Under the pieces are notes generated by a model. The model was not told where the DNA came from and did no database searches. It saw only the letters and a list, made by a program, of their open reading frames with translations. DNA of 62,879 nucleotides, the filler included, from Stramenopiles sp. TOSAG23-2 (Eukaryota), in NCBI GenBank assembly GCA_900128395.1. It is 8 parts of 8 records of this genome, joined end to end, with 100 filler letters (N's around TTAATTAATTAA, not from the genome) between each part and the next. Parts side by side here need not be neighbours in the genome. Positions count along the whole stretch, not along the records: positions 47,285 to 55,051 come from LT650279.1; 7 more parts are not named here. The stretch is one strand, 5' to 3'. Of this stretch, positions 45,283 through 55,051 are shown in pieces (the stretch's first letter is position 1; each line of letters starts with the position of its first letter). A program made the translations under genes and the position numbers.

Positions 45283-45381
45283 NNNNNNNNNNNNNNNNNN
45301 NNNNNNNNNNNNNNNNNNNNNNNNNNNNNNNNNNNNNNNNNNNNNNNNNNNNNNNNNNNNNNNNNNNNNNNNNNNNNNNNN
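45283..45381. other. Internal scaffold gap (99 N, no linker) flanked by poly-T
   Basis: N-run without TTAATTAATTAA, lying between two T homopolymers. Confidence 0.9.
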
Positions 45382-47184: not shown

Positions 47185-47284
47185 NNNNNNNNNNNNNNNN
47201 NNNNNNNNNNNNNNNNNNNNNNNNNNNNTTAATTAATTAANNNNNNNNNNNNNNNNNNNNNNNNNNNNNNNNNNNNNNNNNNNN

Positions 47285-50200
47285 ACAAATCTCATTCCTA
47301 TAACAAAATCACAGTCTTCAAATGTCAGCTGATCACCATTTAAATACTTTTTGGATTGCTTTAAACGTTCTTCAAATGGTTCAAACATTTTTAAAACATC
47401 GCCTAATAAGGGTGTTTTCGATGCACCAAAAGGACTAAACAATGCAAATTTATTCAGTGCTTTGTATTCACTTTTAATATTCTTTAAATCAAACATATCA
47501 ATATTTTCAATATTTGGAAAACGCCGAGTCAGTTCTTGAGCAACATTTTCCGTTTCAAATATCCATTTTCCACTACTGTATAAAAATGGTGTAGTAGGCT
47601 TTTCCCCATCTTCTCGCAACGGTTTGTGCCAGCTTTCTTTAGCTTTTCCAAATAAATTAACTGCAATTAATTTATATGGAATTTTACAATGGTACATTAC
47701 CATCTCAACTGTCGCTGAGTATGGGCAAACTTTTAGCAAACGGCCATTTGAATTGTAACAGCAGCCAACACCTAAGACTAATGTTTCTTCATCTAAATTT
47801 GGTATATCTTCGATAGTGACAAACTCAGGACATGGAAGCCTACGATGTTGCTCTAATACAGGCAATTGCATACCAAATCGCCAAGCAACAAAGTCTATAA
47901 CTTCTATTCCTAGTTCAATTTCAACGTCTAAAATTCTTTCCTCACTTTTTCGAACACAGTAGCTACCTCTAGATTGTTGAAAAGCAGGAGAGCGTTTCAC
48001 TCTATCAAAATATTTCCCCAAAGTATCTTCATACTCTTGTATTATATCATGATTTTTGGACACCATAACAACATTATAACCATTCAAAAATTGGTGCACA
48101 AAGTGACAATCTGATAATGACAATGTTGGTCCACAAAGGAATCCCCAATTCAACTCTAGTTGTTTTATAAATGGTTCTAAATCTTCTTTTACTTTTATCC
48201 ACGCCTTTTCCTCCTTTTCAGACCCTTTCTCGGTTTTAGCATAGCCTATCATCCCCATTAAATTAATCCGTTTATCAAATTTTTCGGTCAATAATGTAAA
48301 TGGTTTTGTCATCTGTACATCATCTTTATACTTTATACGTAATTTTTCAAGTATAACTTCCGTATCAAAAACCCATTCATCATCGATTCGCATACATGGC
48401 GTTGTTGGCTTTCCATCCTTGTGAATATCTACAAACCAATCCTCCTTCTTCTTAGCAGTAAAATCTACACAAACAACTTTGTACGGCAATTTCATACCCT
48501 TGATTACCATTTCAATCGTAGAACTGTACGGACAAATTTTTACAAGCTCTCCTGATGATATATAAATACCACCTGTGACTAAAACCAAATGATCTCTCTC
48601 GTATTTTGGAACATCTTTTACAGAGATTATGCTTCCCCATGTGCTAGATGGATGGTCAAATTGTTTAGTAGATGAAATAGACTCGTTGGTAAAGGACATT
48701 ACTCTATCGTAATTTGCCATTTGTAACCCCCATCGATTTATGGCATAATGCAAAAACATCTTTCCAAACTCATATTCAACAAGTTCTACATCAAGTTCCG
48801 TATGTCGTATTTCCCATGCACCCTGTGGAGCGTAGTGTATGAATGAGTGATGTTGATGCGTTAGAGAGGATATACCTTTTTTAAGTTTAGGGGAATAAAA
48901 TTTTACTTACTCTTACGAATTTCCAACTATCACGCATTTTCAATCGTTTTAAATATGAACTTAGCTCTGGAACAGATTCCATCATATCAGTTCCTTTTAA
49001 TACTTTTACAAATACTCCAATACTACACATCTGTTGTGAGAAAAAACAATCACTATAAGAAAGGCTATCGCCACCTAAATATTTATTTGTCTTCAATCGA
49101 TCAACGTATGGTTGTAACAATGCCATCAAATTTGCACGTGTTGTCTTTTCTTCTTCTGAATTATCTTCGCTTCCCGCATATTTAGCTACTGTCATAGCAG
49201 AAAATTTATCATAACCGTCTGTATATGATAAAATTTTATCATTAAATGTATTTTTTTGCAATCGTTTTAATTCATTAATAATATTAATTGTATCAAATAT
49301 CCATTTGCCATCACTATACAAACATGGGACAGCTGGTTTACTTTCTGGATGAACCTTTTTAAACCATTCTGGTTTATTATCCCCACAAAACATATCTGTG
49401 CGTATAATCTGATATGGTATTTCAGCTTCAATCATTGCAAATTCTAAGGCACAACAATACGGACACATGCGCATGTACTCTCCACTACTTCTTAAAGTAA
49501 CACCACCAGCAACAAGTACAACTGTTCCTGGAGGTAAATTTCCTGCAATAACATTTTCATACGTTGTAATTTCTTTATGCTTTAAATTAACAGCTTTCAC
49601 GGCTTTATCATAATTAGCCATAGGTAATTTCCACCTGTTTCTTCCATATGTACAAAATTGTTTTCCAAACTCATATTCAACAAGTTCTACATCAAGTTCC
49701 GTATGTCGTATTTCCCATGCACCCTGTGGAGCGTAGTGTATGAATGAGTGATGTTGATGCGTTAGAGAGGATATACCTTTTTTAAGTTTAGGGGAATAAA
49801 ATTTTACTTACTCTTACGAATTTCCAACTATCACGCATTTTCAATCGTTTTAAATATGAACTTAGCTCTGGAACAGATTCCATCATATCAGTTCCTTTTA
49901 ATACTTTTACAAATACTCCAATACTACACATCTGTTGTGAGAAAAAACAATCACTATAAGAAAGGCTATCGCCACCTAAATATTTATTTGTCTTCAATCG
50001 ATCAACGTATGGTTGTAACAATGCCATCAAATTTGCACGTGTTGTCTTTTCTTCTTCTGAATTATCTTCGCTTCCCGCATATTTAGCTACTGTCATAGCA
50101 GAAAATTTATCATAACCGTCTGTATATGATAAAATTTTATCATTAAATGTATTTTTTTGCAATCGTTTTAATTCATTAATAATATTAATTGTATCAAATA

Positions 50201-50528
50201 TCCATTTGCCATCACTATACAAACATGGGACAGCTGGTTTACTTTCTGGATGAACCTTTTTAAACCATTCTGGTTTATTATCCCCACAAAACATATCTGT
50301 GCGTATAATCTGATATGGTATTTCAGCTTCAATCATTGCAAATTCTAAGGCACAACAATACGGACACATGCGCATGTACTCTCCACTACTTCTTAAAGTA
50401 ACACCACCAGCAACAAGTACAACTGTTCCTGGAGGTAAATTTCCTGCAATAACATTTTCATACGTTGTAATTTCTTTATGTTTTAATGTTTTCAATTTAT
50501 TTACTTTCTTTACAACTTTCTTCTTCAT
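47285..50528 (-). CDS. Tandem array of at least 4 glutathione-S-transferase-fold domains (DHAR/CLIC/omega-like, CPY active site); introns 49724..49811 and 48823..48910; 3' truncated
   Basis: Units with MCPYCC, MCPYCC, ICPYSS and VCPYSA, then KP.WF..P...P.P.L..DG.W..DT and YL.G..LS.SDC.F. Two 88-nt GTAAGT..CTAAC..CAG introns splice in phase 0 (SWKFVR|GAWEIR), joining ORFs 49788..50528, 48887..49621 and 47233..48759. Confidence 0.85.
48761..50480. repeat. 819-bp direct repeat (48761..49579 and 49662..50480), apparently identical including the intron
   Basis: Offset 901 bp, identical translations in the ORF track, and an 82-bp unique linker between the copies. Confidence 0.92.
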
Positions 50529-50552
50529 AATTACCTTCTTCTTCCTCCTTCG

Positions 50553-52136
50553 TTATTCACGAAGAGGTTTATTTCGTTTTGGTTGTAATATTTTTTTCAC
50601 AATTCGCTTCTTTACTTTATTATTATTTCTCTTTGTAAAACCACTTTGCATCTTCGGCGGCGATGGAACTACAATATCATTCGCCTCTGTAATTTCAACA
50701 ATGGTTTCTTCACGTATTGTTTCAGGTTGATATTGCTTTTTTGTAATAGTGTTATTATTTTCAAGATATGCTTTGTCGATATCATTATTGTATTTTTGTT
50801 GCTGGGACATGGTAATATCTTCTTTGACTACGTATTTACTATTACCTGATCGCTCCTGTCTATAAGCAAGTTCTTCCTTCGATGATTGAAAATATTCCTT
50901 TTGTTGATGTTGTTGTTGTTGATACATATGTGGCACTTTATAATTTTGGACGTTATCATAATTTGAATGATATTGTTGATTCTTGAAATTATTATTATTA
51001 TCATCATCATTTTTTCCATTTCCAAGAGTTGACATAGATTGAATATTTTTATAAAATGATGGGCGCTGCTGGGATCCCGATTCAGATGGATAGAAAGTGT
51101 CTGTGCGTCTAATCTCATCGCTATTTACATAATCTTTTGTGGCATTGTTGTTATTATTGCTATTGAAAGAAGGACCTGGTTTAAATGATTTTTCTGATTT
51201 TTTTTTAGGAATCTTCAATGGAACAGTTTCATTGAAACGTGTTGCATCTGAAATTGGATTAGTACCATCTTTCCGTGCAGCTGCACTCGATTTCACAGTT
51301 ATATCGTCAAATCTCATATTATAACCTACATCTTTGCCTAAATTGTAATGTGTCATGGCACGCACAGCGCGTTGGACAATTGGATCCCACACTACTATTG
51401 AAACAAACAAGCTACCTTTCATTCGTTTTAAGTTTTGATTTGCAAAAGGTGAATCCTTATCTATTATATGGGAGATTGAAATAGGAGATTTGATGCATTG
51501 AAATGCTGTTAATTTGACATCAAACAGCTCACCATATATTTCCCCTTCTTTTGATTTCGTTGGTTTTGCCCATTGAGCTGTCAAGTTTTCAACGTCTAAT
51601 AGTGTGCCTTGTGCATTCATTACTCGAAATTGCAAAATAGGTATTCCATCCCTAAAATTAATAACAAGTGACGGGGTAAAAAACAACTTTGGCGAGACAC
51701 TTTCAAATTTTGCAACCATAATGGCTAACGCGATAGATTTAAAGATAACATTTAACAGTGCTGAAGTAGCATATAAAGTACGACAAATTGTCGTTGGTTT
51801 TATATTTTCAAACGACCCAGCGCCTACAATTTCAGCAAACGTTCTCATCATTTGTTGGTCAAACGTAACATCGTTACCACAGTCTGAACCTACATACAAA
51901 GCAGATAATGTAATAATAACAATACTGGTCACAACAGTCACAAGAGGTATTAAATACTTTAATTTCATTGTTTGAGCCTTCGTAACAATATCATAAAATA
52001 AATTTTTCGGCGGAGGCTCAATATAATGCATTCTTAATAAATTAGAATCCTTCATAATTTTGGCTTTTTCCATCACATTATGAAAATGTGGATGTTTATC
52101 TTTTGTACATAACGATTTCAAATATTTCATCGCCAT
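50553..52136 (-). CDS. Inward-rectifier (Kir/KirBac-type) cation channel with atypical filter
   Basis: Two TM helices flank the pore segment FAEIVGAG. The Kir cytoplasmic domain is recognisable: LFFT..LVI..RDG.P.LQFRV.N, SKEGE, ISHIIDKDSPF, RF.DI, D..RFNETVP. Confidence 0.88.
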   Translation of the reverse strand: MAMKYLKSLCTKDKHPHFHNVMEKAKIMKDSNLLRMHYIEPPPKNLFYDIVTKAQTMKLKYLIPLVTVVTSIVIITLSALYVGSDCGNDVTFDQQMMRTFAEIVGAGSFENIKPTTICRTLYATSALLNVIFKSIALAIMVAKFESVSPKLFFTPSLVINFRDGIPILQFRVMNAQGTLLDVENLTAQWAKPTKSKEGEIYGELFDVKLTAFQCIKSPISISHIIDKDSPFANQNLKRMKGSLFVSIVVWDPIVQRAVRAMTHYNLGKDVGYNMRFDDITVKSSAAARKDGTNPISDATRFNETVPLKIPKKKSEKSFKPGPSFNSNNNNNATKDYVNSDEIRRTDTFYPSESGSQQRPSFYKNIQSMSTLGNGKNDDDNNNNFKNQQYHSNYDNVQNYKVPHMYQQQQHQQKEYFQSSKEELAYRQERSGNSKYVVKEDITMSQQQKYNNDIDKAYLENNNTITKKQYQPETIREETIVEITEANDIVVPSPPKMQSGFTKRNNNKVKKRIVKKILQPKRNKPLRE

Positions 52137-53270
52137 AATTAATAATGTATTATTTATTTCACTTTGTATGATATTGATAAATATTATTTCGAAGCTTATA
52201 TCTTTTTTTTAATTCTTCTCTTTATACACTTGTTTTACTTGTAGGTATGTATAAAGCTATTATATATTATTATTATAGATGTATATATGTGCGTTAGTTT
52301 AAAAATTATTTATTAATATTTTAATAGCACAATATATAATGCACTAATGCAACTAATGTGCTAACCTGGCTAATAATAATAAATAATAATAATTATAAAA
52401 AAAAAAAAATAACGAGAAGTCGTCTGAGATCTGGGTGGGAGATGGGAGAGCGGTGTGCCAGGTGTGCTTCTTCTTCAGCTTTTAGAAGATATTAATCAAT
52501 TTTTAGTACCACTTTAAGTACAAATAATCACGCTATTCGATATTGTCAATAAAAATTACAGATTATCAGGTGCTATACCACCTGGTGGTATTATGTTGTA
52601 TTATATATAATACTGGTACAGTATTTCCCGTGCATCATCCTCTCTATCAATTGCATCTGTGTATGTCTTATGTGCATTTAATGCTAAGTCTGCTAACGAC
52701 ATGATGTTTTATATTTACTAGAAGTTGGTCGATGTTGGTTATAATATACATTGGGATGTATACATTGATGCAAAATGTATCCGTATTTGTTAATTGAAAT
52801 ATATATTTTAACAATATTATAATTTAAATTAACGTTTTTTTTATTATTATGATGCCGCATGCTATTTAAGGTATATTTAAGGACAGCCTTTCTATATATA
52901 TCTGGTACTACTGTAAACGAAGAATGGCACAATGGCATATTATATCTTGAGAGAGTAAAAAAAATATTCTTAACACAGACCGAATAGTCGTCCTATGCTT
53001 AAAAAGTCCGAGCAGCTAGTCGTCTATGATAATGTATATTTTTTTCTGAAAATTCGTTTTAATTTAATATAAAATCATAATGAAAAATATTTTTAAATTT
53101 TAAAAACGTCAATTTTCGTATGATACATATCATAAGCGCGTACGAATCTCCATATATATAATAACAAACACCCATATCACCAAGTAGATAGCTTTTCTAA
53201 AAGCGTATTTTTATGTTTTCATCATTTATGAGACATGTATACACAGTGGTGAAATCATTCCATACGATAC

Positions 53271-55051
53271 TTAATCATCATATTCATTGTACATTTCTTC
53301 CATTTCCACTAATCCACGATTTGCTATACGTGCAAGGGTATCTAATACTTCAATATCATCTTGATCAAGTTCATATACTTCTACTGCTGCCATTACTCTG
53401 TCATCGCTACTTAAAATTAATTCTTTTAATGCCGCTTTTTGCACATTATCAATCACTCCTTGGTTGTACAATTGCGCAGCACCTTTTAATGCAACACCAT
53501 ATCGCCGACGCAATTGCGTGGTTTCAGGTGAAAAGTAACGCGAATCTTCATCTAAATATGCAGAGTAACCGGATGCACTTGATATTCTAGAAGTGTTCGA
53601 TTCGGATGATTGCTTTTTAGAGACTACTTTTGCTGCCTTTTGTTGTTGGACACGTCGTGTTGGACTTTGGCTTAAATATTTATTTCCAATATTTCCATCT
53701 ACCAATATAAAATCATCATCTTCCTCATAATCATCATCATCATCTTCCTCATAATAATCATCAGAGTATTCACGTCCATCAACATAATCGTAGTCTTGAG
53801 AGTCATCATTCAATACGCCAACTTGCTGCATTTCAGCTCTTGTTGGCCTATCACGTAATTGTGTAGCTAAAGAATCTTTCACAAAGCTCTTCTTAGATGC
53901 TACTACACCACCAGCTACACCTACATCTTTTATAATATTACGTTGTTTTAAATCTGAAAGACTAGGCCTAGATTCAAGCATATGACCTAAATGATTTGTT
54001 AACATTTGTTTTTCCAACTTTTCTTTTGTACTTAAAATGCTATCCGCAACGCCATCTTTATAAATTCCTTGTTCTCTTAGTTGTTCAACATCTGGTCTCA
54101 TTTCTAACAAATGCCCGACCGTATCTTTATTCATTTTTCGCTCCAACGTTGCTGCTAAACCTTGAATGCGTGGTGCAACGAAATTGCTTTTTTTAATACC
54201 ACTTTGTGTTATGAATTCTTCATTTGGCCTGGTCTCTAACAAATGGCCAACGACATCACCTACCATACGCTTCTCCAATTTACTTGCAACTCCTTGTATG
54301 CGTGGTGCAATTTTAGAATCTTTGTTTCGTAAAATTCCATCAGAAAACAATTGCTTAATATTTGGTCGTGATTCCAATAAATGTTGAACGCTATTTGTAT
54401 TGATTTGACGCTCTAATTTATTTGCTAAACCTTGTATACGTGGTGCAACTTTAGTTTTTTGCAACATACCTTGTTCCAACATCGAATCTTTGTCTGGTCT
54501 GTCAAGCAATAAGTGATTGACCATATCCGAGTTAATTTTTCGCTCCAACTTTGCTGCTAAGCCTTGTATACGAGGTGCTATGGCTAGATCATCTTTTAAT
54601 ACACCTGCATCAATTAATTCCTCCGCGTCCGGTCTTTGCAATAAACTTTGACTCACATTGTCTTTTGCCATCTTTTTTTCCAATTGTTTAGCAACACCTT
54701 GGATTTTGTCTGCAATATTGTTTTGTTGCAATATCCCGCCATTTACTAATGTATCCATCTCTGGTCGTTTATTTAAAGCATTTTTAACATTCCTGGTTGC
54801 TAATTGTTTTTCAAGTGATCTTTTTCTTTCCTCAACTGTACTATGTTGCGACTGAGGTTTACTTTGCTTTAATTGTAATTCTAACTTATTTGCCCTGGCT
54901 GCCATCGACATACTAGAAGTCATGGCAACCGCTGGCACCGATTTCCCATTGAACGTCGTTGCAGGTGCAGGTTTTGGCTTTGCCTTTGAACTATTGGCAT
55001 TAATATTGTTGCTTTTACTTGCCGATTTTTTGTTTCTTCTGAATTTTTTTC
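53271..55051 (-). CDS. RPEL-repeat (G-actin-binding) protein with 8 visible repeats, 5' truncated
   Basis: RPEMDTLVNGGIL, RPDAEELIDAGVL, RPDKDSMLEQGML, RPNIKQLFSDGIL, RPNEEFITQSGI, RPDVEQLREQGIY, RPSLSDLKQRNII and RPTRAEMQQVGVL. The frame is open to the gap. Confidence 0.88.

Follow-up and report, generated by a model that had tools for sequence, protein, structure and literature searches.

A probable Kir–GST fusion gene in a marine stramenopile, and the in-frame TAA that interrupts it

Does a single TAA codon mark the boundary between two neighboring genes in Stramenopiles sp. TOSAG23-2 (GenBank assembly GCA_900128395.1), or does it interrupt one gene? The question arises at positions 47285–52136, minus strand, of the stretch of DNA analyzed here (62,879 nucleotides, referred to throughout as ‘the window’). 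There, an open reading frame (ORF) for a protein resembling Kir potassium channels ends at a TAA, and the same frame runs on at once into domains of the glutathione S-transferase (GST) fold. An earlier note, made from the sequence by itself, proposed a Kir channel in frame with at least four GST units, and regarded the TAA as either a site of stop readthrough, or a nonsense allele or base error. We consider it very likely that these positions hold the 5′ part of one Kir–GST gene, and that the TAA, which departs by one base from the codon seen elsewhere and is found in this assembly only, is not a readthrough site. The product is a Kir-fold subunit followed by a low-complexity linker of ~215 residues and a C-terminal array of at least four GST modules of the Cys type. 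What such a protein might do is a separate matter, to which we return once the gene itself has been described.

The window strings together eight contigs, all of about the same length (~7.8 kb), by means of artificial linkers of the form N44-TTAATTAATTAA-N44 that contain stops in all six frames; an additional gap, N99, lies inside the window at 45283–45381. Because the linkers are artificial, features on opposite sides of a linker are not genomic neighbors. The Kir–GST gene sits on the contig at 47285–55051 (G+C ~33%), and since a linker begins at 47284, position 47285 is an assembly boundary and not the end of the gene. All of the gene's features lie on the minus strand. Exon 1 (50556–52136) is a Kir-like ORF of 527 codons that begins with the ATG at 52136–52134—the same Met with which a close relative, P0001, begins—and ends ..KRNKPLRE at the TAA, 50555–50553. 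It encodes the Kir-like subunit (residues 1–312, modeled below) and a linker rich in Asn, Gln and Lys (residues 313–527). Directly after the TAA, and in the same frame, the codons CGA AGG AGG AAG.. open a frame of 254 codons (50552–49788), in which a polybasic stretch leads into a GST-fold unit. Exon 2 (49812–50552) comprises this polybasic stretch and GST unit 1; exon 3 (48911–49723), an inter-unit linker and unit 2; and exon 4, as far as it extends (47285–48822), units 3 and 4. Intron 1 (49724–49811) and intron 2 (48823–48910) are each 88 nt long with GT..AG ends. With both removed, the model is 1,558 codons long and contains a sole stop, at codon 528; it is truncated by the contig end at 47285, inside GST unit 4. 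Pfam finds IRK_C in the first ORF, and GST_N_2 or GST_N_3 together with GST_C or GST_C_3 in the four downstream units. The GST_N_2 and GST_C families are represented in each of the three downstream frames, the last of which accommodates two units (two GST_N_2 matches, GST_C and GST_C_3). The outline given in the earlier note—a Kir ORF ending KRNKPLRE-TAA, a same-frame continuation into unit 1 and a Kir-(GST)4+ product of >1550 residues—is thus borne out, and the frame does carry on across the TAA to four units; the array itself is not one uninterrupted frame, however, but is broken by the two introns. Such a split ORF, consisting of two frames of at least 150 codons with one stop between them, is unique in the window in all six frames, and so is more than a chance occurrence.

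Which codon normally occupies positions 50553–50555? Logan contigs of four public sequencing runs (X1, X2, X15 and X16) were compared with the window over 49600–52450. The site is covered by contigs of X1 and X16 only, X2, perhaps the source run of the window, having no contig over 50487–50573 and X15 none at the site. In both of the covering contigs, plus-strand position 50555 is T, not A, and the coding-strand codon is AAA (Lys). The X1 contig (5,165 nt, depth 18.1) differs from the window at this one base and at no other over 1,916 shared positions (50451–52366). The X16 contig comes from a poly(A)-selected metatranscriptome; it is 218 nt long (50500–50717), with 56 letters on the short side of the site. 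P0001, a predicted protein of 781 amino acids from another assembly (98% identical; cluster of 51 members), reads ..LREK RRRK.., with Lys at the place of the stop. Among X1, X16 and P0001, no source has TAA at the site, and neither of the more distant relatives P0003 and P0007 has a stop there. These comparisons show that the codon normally at the site is AAA. The frame on the 3′ side of the TAA displays no decay, which means that the TAA is either an error, introduced in amplification, sequencing or assembly and consensus calling, or a rare nonsense allele of very recent date. On this last point the nonsense-or-error half of the earlier note agrees with the data. It had named, as checks, orthologues with a sense codon at the stop and a transcript spanning Kir and GST; P0001 has Lys there, the relatives P0003 and P0007 are fused without a stop, and the X16 RNA contig bridges the junction.

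Some points weigh against so simple an account of the TAA. P0001 and the X16 contig derive from strains that differ slightly, and the gap in the X2 contigs falls over the site itself, so that the contigs speak for an error and for a real allele alike. Three other explanations nevertheless fare far worse. Under programmed readthrough, the TAA would be genuine and conserved, and ribosomes passing it at some rate would yield a Kir-(GST)n protein alongside a Kir-only one. The continuous frame, the polybasic composition that carries on across the stop, and the want of intergenic space are what would be expected of this, and led the earlier note to suggest it. But the stop is not conserved even in otherwise identical sequence: AAA in X1 and in X16 RNA, and Lys in P0001, mean that the TAA is not a programmed signal, and with P0003 and P0007 fused and stop-free besides, we regard readthrough as very improbable. 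Equally improbable, in our estimation, is that there are two genes, a Kir gene that ends at the TAA and a GST-array gene that starts nine codons further on. An ATG is indeed present at model codon 537 (..VIMKKK..), but this only nearby Met is Thr in P0001, just ~25 nt would be available for a terminator and a promoter, the RNA contig crosses the junction, and the relatives are fused. Finally, TAA might be a sense codon in this organism. The open frame is compatible with such a reassigned code, and nothing further speaks for it; this AT-rich gene uses TAA once in 1,558 codons, 19 of the window's 27 frames that are at least 250 codons long terminate in it, and other strains have AAA at the site. 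A reassigned code is accordingly the most far-fetched of the three. Kir and GST array are therefore best treated as parts of a single gene, as the bridging RNA contig and the fused relatives indicate, and TAA 50553–50555 should be annotated neither as a gene boundary nor as a readthrough site.

The Kir–GST gene is expressed in the ocean. Contigs of the X16 metatranscriptome cover parts of the Kir region (51266–51983), the junction, and unit 1 (49811–50452). One X16 contig contains a spliced joint at which 88 nt are skipped, with CT..AC ends on the plus strand (GT..AG on the coding strand), and the join at intron 1 reads ..KFVR/GAWEIRH.. in frame; because this is the spliced form, the contig derives from RNA rather than from contaminating DNA. 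Introns 1 and 2, which lie between units 1 and 2 and between units 2 and 3, respectively, are identical (88/88 by blastn), and in P0156, from another assembly, the identical join occurs, with unit 3 after it. Within the window, the 88-nt intron has no further copies beyond the two in this gene. Other contigs of X1, X2, X15 and X16 match 33–57 nt of it with 2–5 differences, and lose similarity at the intron borders or close to them (loose ends at 49721–49724 and 49804/49811). Over the intron, summed depth rises to ~139–309 against ~9 in X2. By sequence, the intron seems to belong to a repeated family, and may be an introner-like element.

Units 1 and 2 form a tandem repeat with a period of 901 nt, and are 100% identical over ~830 nt (48760–49590 versus 49661–50491). 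The tandem junction appears also in Logan contigs of X1 and X2, where the joint steps back by 887, with 14 intervening letters that were matched by eye to window positions 49586–49599. P0154 starts in the unit-to-unit linker. Given the junction in X1 and X2, and given P0154 and P0156 (the latter from another assembly), the duplication is not an artefact of this assembly. Contigs of the repeat unit have ~3.3 times the depth of Kir contigs (29.1 versus 8.88 in X2; ~61 versus 18.1 in X1), a hint that further identical units beyond two were collapsed in assembly, although the depths do not amount to a copy number. Sequence comparison also suggests that the tandem units are homogenized. Units 1 and 2 both differ from their counterparts in another strain (P0001 unit 1 and P0154) at the same short stretch before their CPYC motif.

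What kind of GST are these modules? Each of the four units has a thioredoxin-like N-domain and a helical C-domain (GST_N_2 with GST_C or GST_C_3). In unit 1, the Pfam matches have E-values of 1.3e-10 (GST_N_2) and 4.6e-5 (GST_C), and the best match by sequence in the PDB is a plant dehydroascorbate reductase (DHAR), 7f8s (E 1.7e-11, residues 32–219). In the alignment with 7f8s, the catalytic Cys (CPY in one, CPF in the other), the cis-proline (VP), and D-T versus D-S correspond, and NKPEWF is identical. A structural model of unit 1 is of moderate confidence (predicted local distance difference test, pLDDT, 65.9); the top nine Foldseek matches to it are all DHARs (E ~1e-8), and CLIC1 comes at rank 48 (TMq 0.64). 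No window unit matches the CLIC-like N-domain PF22441 at E≤0.01, and CLIC2 and CLIC5 are found by PDB sequence search with unit 1 at E 0.12–1. Of the ‘GST/DHAR/CLIC-like’ label that these units were first given, then, the DHAR part is upheld by sequence and by predicted fold, and a CLIC-specific signature is missing; as judged from the model, the CLIC resemblance is generic similarity of GST folds. By sequence and model, the modules appear to be Cys-type, DHAR/CLIC-like proteins closest to the dehydroascorbate reductases. Like other GSTs of the Cys type (DHARs, CLICs and omega GSTs), they combine GST_N with GST_C, begin helix 1 with a Cys (CPY-), and possess the glutathione-site positions KPEWF, cis-Pro and D-T/S; unlike them, they occur at least four in tandem, covalently joined to a channel. 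Glutathione-site motifs and catalytic Cys are retained in all four units, and all 13 of the Kir-attached GST units that were aligned keep the Cys column. The motif is CPYC in units 1 and 2, which we take to be the dithiol typical of glutaredoxins, and CPYS in units 3 and 4.

The channel part is, as modeled, a complete Kir fold. An AlphaFold2 (AF2) model of residues 1–330, built from 45 sequences, has a mean pLDDT of 86.3 and comprises a slide helix, M1 (residues 59–83), a pore helix (92–104), a loop, M2 (116–146) and a beta-rich domain, the helices being assigned by DSSP; M1 through M2 (residues 59–146) correspond to 51699–51962. Foldseek matches it to KirBac3.1 (7n9k, E 7e-20, template-modeling (TM) scores 0.57/0.64), and chains of Kir2.2, Kir6.x and KirBac3.1 align over ~280–305 columns, the whole length, with probability 1.00. 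The cytoplasmic domain (residues 153–312; 51201–51680) matches IRK_C, PF17655, with E 2.3e-8 and 34.4 bits against a cut-off of 22.5. A sequence search of the PDB finds a Kir3.1/KirBac chimera (E 2e-7) and cytoplasmic domains of Kir3.1, Kir2.x and KirBac. The Pfam model of the IRK transmembrane region has no match at E≤0.01. The product thus shares with Kir and KirBac channels (IRK, PF01007, plus IRK_C) the succession of slide helix, M1, pore helix, M2 and beta-rich cytoplasmic domain, and departs from them in having no TxGYG signature, and in having a 215-residue linker and GST array after the cytoplasmic domain.

The missing signature deserves emphasis. At the position of the TxGYG filter, five codons (residues 105–109; 51810–51824) specify G-A-G-S-F when aligned to canonical relatives by hmmalign or, shifted by one residue, A-G-S-F-E when aligned to the Kir3.1/KirBac chimera by phmmer; neither is the TxGYG/TxGFG of potassium channels, and close relatives have GAGTA and GASSS. 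With the selectivity signature missing, ‘Kir channel’, as the locus was first called, is true of the fold, and of the fold only. To judge from the sequence, the channel part is a Kir-fold subunit whose selectivity is probably low. The one precedent that we found for Kir architecture without a potassium filter is the NirBac channels, which have non-canonical P-loops, reportedly unrelated to any known filter, and have been shown to be non-selective cation channels (PMC4607889). NirBacs resemble the protein described here, on description only, in keeping the Kir architecture while replacing the filter sequence; they differ in being bacterial, and in having no fused GST. They are the best available guide to this pore, and by analogy with them it would probably pass cations with little selectivity.

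Is the fusion peculiar to this organism? Used as the query in an exhaustive search without a profile, the Kir core matched 188 proteins at E≤1e-3, 30 of them at E≤1e-10. We scanned 150 listed Kir relatives with Pfam at E 1e-3 (1e-4 for 104 proteins, all ≤357 amino acids). GST domains accompany IRK_C in seven of the 150, all seven lying among the 36 proteins of at least 400 amino acids; in the 104 proteins of ≤357 amino acids, Pfam finds none. The GST domain is N-terminal to the channel in P0053, P0104 and P0147, C-terminal in P0067 and P0099, and on both sides in P0095; in P0043, Pfam places it on the N-terminal side, and the C-terminal region looks GST-like by eye. P0003, 62% identical to the window protein, has IRK_C and GST_N_2. 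P0007, with a core 39% identical, has no Pfam GST match, but its C-terminus aligns with GST unit 1 over 193 residues by BLASTP (E 7e-10). A hidden Markov model (HMM) made from the window units finds GST domains in P0001, P0003, P0007, P0053, P0067, P0095, P0099, P0104 and P0147. Less was gained elsewhere: when longer relatives carrying a fusion were sought with the Kir core, none of 1,524 candidates scored, 313 pattern matches to related loci in metagenome contigs gave no confirmed case, and a search of the ESM Atlas with P0001 returned no usable match.

In a quick maximum-likelihood tree of 77 Kir cores (P0001, cores of low coverage, and all but 14 canonical TxGYG rows being left out), the GST-bearing proteins fall into two well-supported groups that lie far apart. 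One (support 99) consists of the window protein, P0002, P0003, P0004 and P0007, P0002 and P0004 being fragments, and nests with proteins that contain tandem Kir cores. The other (support 97) has nine rows, seven with Pfam GST domains; its filters are of the G[LFYW]G type, and it is sister to canonical KirBac-like rows. Uniting the two groups costs 41.4 log-likelihood units (p-AU 0.031, by the approximately unbiased test), a result that is only suggestive about origins, since the groups were named after the tree had been seen. The sequences suggest that the Kir–GST fusion arose twice, or arose once and was lost many times. The tandem-Kir proteins, which are the nearest neighbors in the tree of the window's clade, are P0011, P0012, P0015, P0017, P0019 and P0046 (880–1,176 amino acids), with two Kir cores in each chain; in P0019 and P0046, the second module is only partly covered.

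How might channel and array work together? Kir subunits form tetramers, and a channel of this kind would accordingly bear at least 16 Cys-GST modules. In the mechanism that we propose, four subunits would assemble into a Kir-type tetramer around a pore without the potassium signature, and the GST modules would hang beneath it on flexible tethers. Their active-site cysteines would react with glutathione, glutathione disulfide (GSSG) or dehydroascorbate, and their redox or glutathionylation state would feed back on gating through the cytoplasmic domain. Membrane conductance would in this way be coupled to the glutathione/ascorbate redox state of the cell. Redox and glutathione control of potassium channels by separate parts is familiar from the aldo-keto reductase (AKR) Kv-beta subunits, and from KefC/KefF. 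The idea of a cytoplasmic redox- or glutathione-handling module that sets channel activity is the same, but the folds of those systems are unrelated (AKR, KTN/RCK and flavodoxin-like), whereas here a GST fold is fused in cis. Among GST-fold proteins, CLICs show both glutaredoxin-like and DHAR activity, and oxidation alters their conformation (PMC4291220), and among Kir channels the same idea is met in Kir6.1, which is gated by S-glutathionylation, at Cys176 (PMC11631806). In favor of a regulatory link are the recurrence and conservation of the fusion, the retention of the catalytic Cys throughout, and the strong conservation of the Kir cytoplasmic domain. We find control of gating by the redox or glutathionylation state of the array plausible by analogy, without going so far as to call it probable.

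Several observations count against this control of gating. A pore this divergent could be non-conducting. The only conserved cysteines in the Kir core, C86 and C118, flank the pore loop and should be on the outer side of the membrane; Kir2.1 has a similar pair, Cys122–Cys154, around its pore loop (PMC10274791), and by analogy the two might form a disulfide here. The channel Cys of Kir6.1 is freely modified, and the present core has no conserved cytoplasmic Cys comparable to Cys176, for which reason glutathionylation of the channel core by the GST modules was set aside as a mechanism. The linker is long, of low complexity, and not conserved between the window protein and P0003, which points to loose tethering more than to a fixed regulatory interface. 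A prediction of the complex of four Kir cytoplasmic domains with GST unit 1, run without alignments or controls, scored 0.00, and carries no weight either way.

Much of this could equally be said of an anchored enzyme, that is, of a GST array that is a working DHAR or thiol transferase, with a Kir-like tetramer that serves only to anchor and multimerize it; there would then be no gating, and the pore might not conduct at all. All four units have the glutathione-site motifs and catalytic Cys that an enzyme needs, their best matches are active DHARs, and the unconserved linker, the lost TxGYG and the core devoid of a conserved cytoplasmic Cys would occasion no surprise. Against it, conservation between the window protein and P0003 is greatest in the Kir cytoplasmic domain, where long stretches are identical, which argues that the channel module is under strong selection as something more than an anchor. 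GST fusion recurs, moreover, on Kir cores with potassium-like filters (G[LFY]G). We therefore look on mere anchoring as unlikely, if by no means fanciful, and continue to favor control of the pore by the array as the working model.

Channels usually acquire sensors through domain fusion (e.g. RCK, CNBD, PAS and Kv-beta). The Kir–GST fusion is conserved down to 39% identity, and is present again in a second, distant Kir clade; one of the two clades lacks the potassium filter. Its modules are N-terminal, C-terminal or both, and in the lineage of the window they have become an array of four or more. In the full-text literature—from which most subscription journals lay outside our scope—queries on Kir–GST and Kir–DHAR fusions and on Kir channels of phytoplankton brought up no description of such a fusion. 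As far as these searches reach, what is new is the fused GST sensor or enzyme module on a channel of the Kir superfamily; the stop codon itself is ordinary. We suggest, tentatively, that marine protists possess an undescribed class of Kir-fold proteins in which Cys-type GST modules act in cis as sensors of glutathione/ascorbate redox state. If so, they would form the first family of channels to be gated by a domain of the GST fold. Should the array gate the pore, it would tie membrane conductance in abundant plankton directly, at the molecular level, to glutathione/ascorbate redox state, and would be a naturally occurring template on which redox-gated channel tools could be built. The lineage also adds a Kir architecture of eukaryotic type without a potassium filter, a condition characterized until now only in the bacterial NirBacs.

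Other fusions came to light among the Kir relatives. An LtrA-family membrane domain precedes a canonical Kir in P0082, P0085, P0088, P0116 and P0123, and a PH domain precedes the Kir core in P0051. All eight of the full-length relatives whose C-termini were read end in a hydrophobic–Cys–hydrophobic tripeptide, whichever side the GST lies on: FCL in P0007, VCI in P0043, LCL in P0063, ICI in P0067 and in P0095, FCV in P0099, LCL in P0104 and VCF in P0147. This could be a lipidation signal or a tail of the PDZ type; the window gene is cut before its own C-terminal end. Upstream of the Kir–GST gene on the same contig, and also on the minus strand, a frame of 592 codons with RPEL repeats (PF02755, E 1.9e-14) occupies 53274–55049 and runs to the contig end, by which it is cut.

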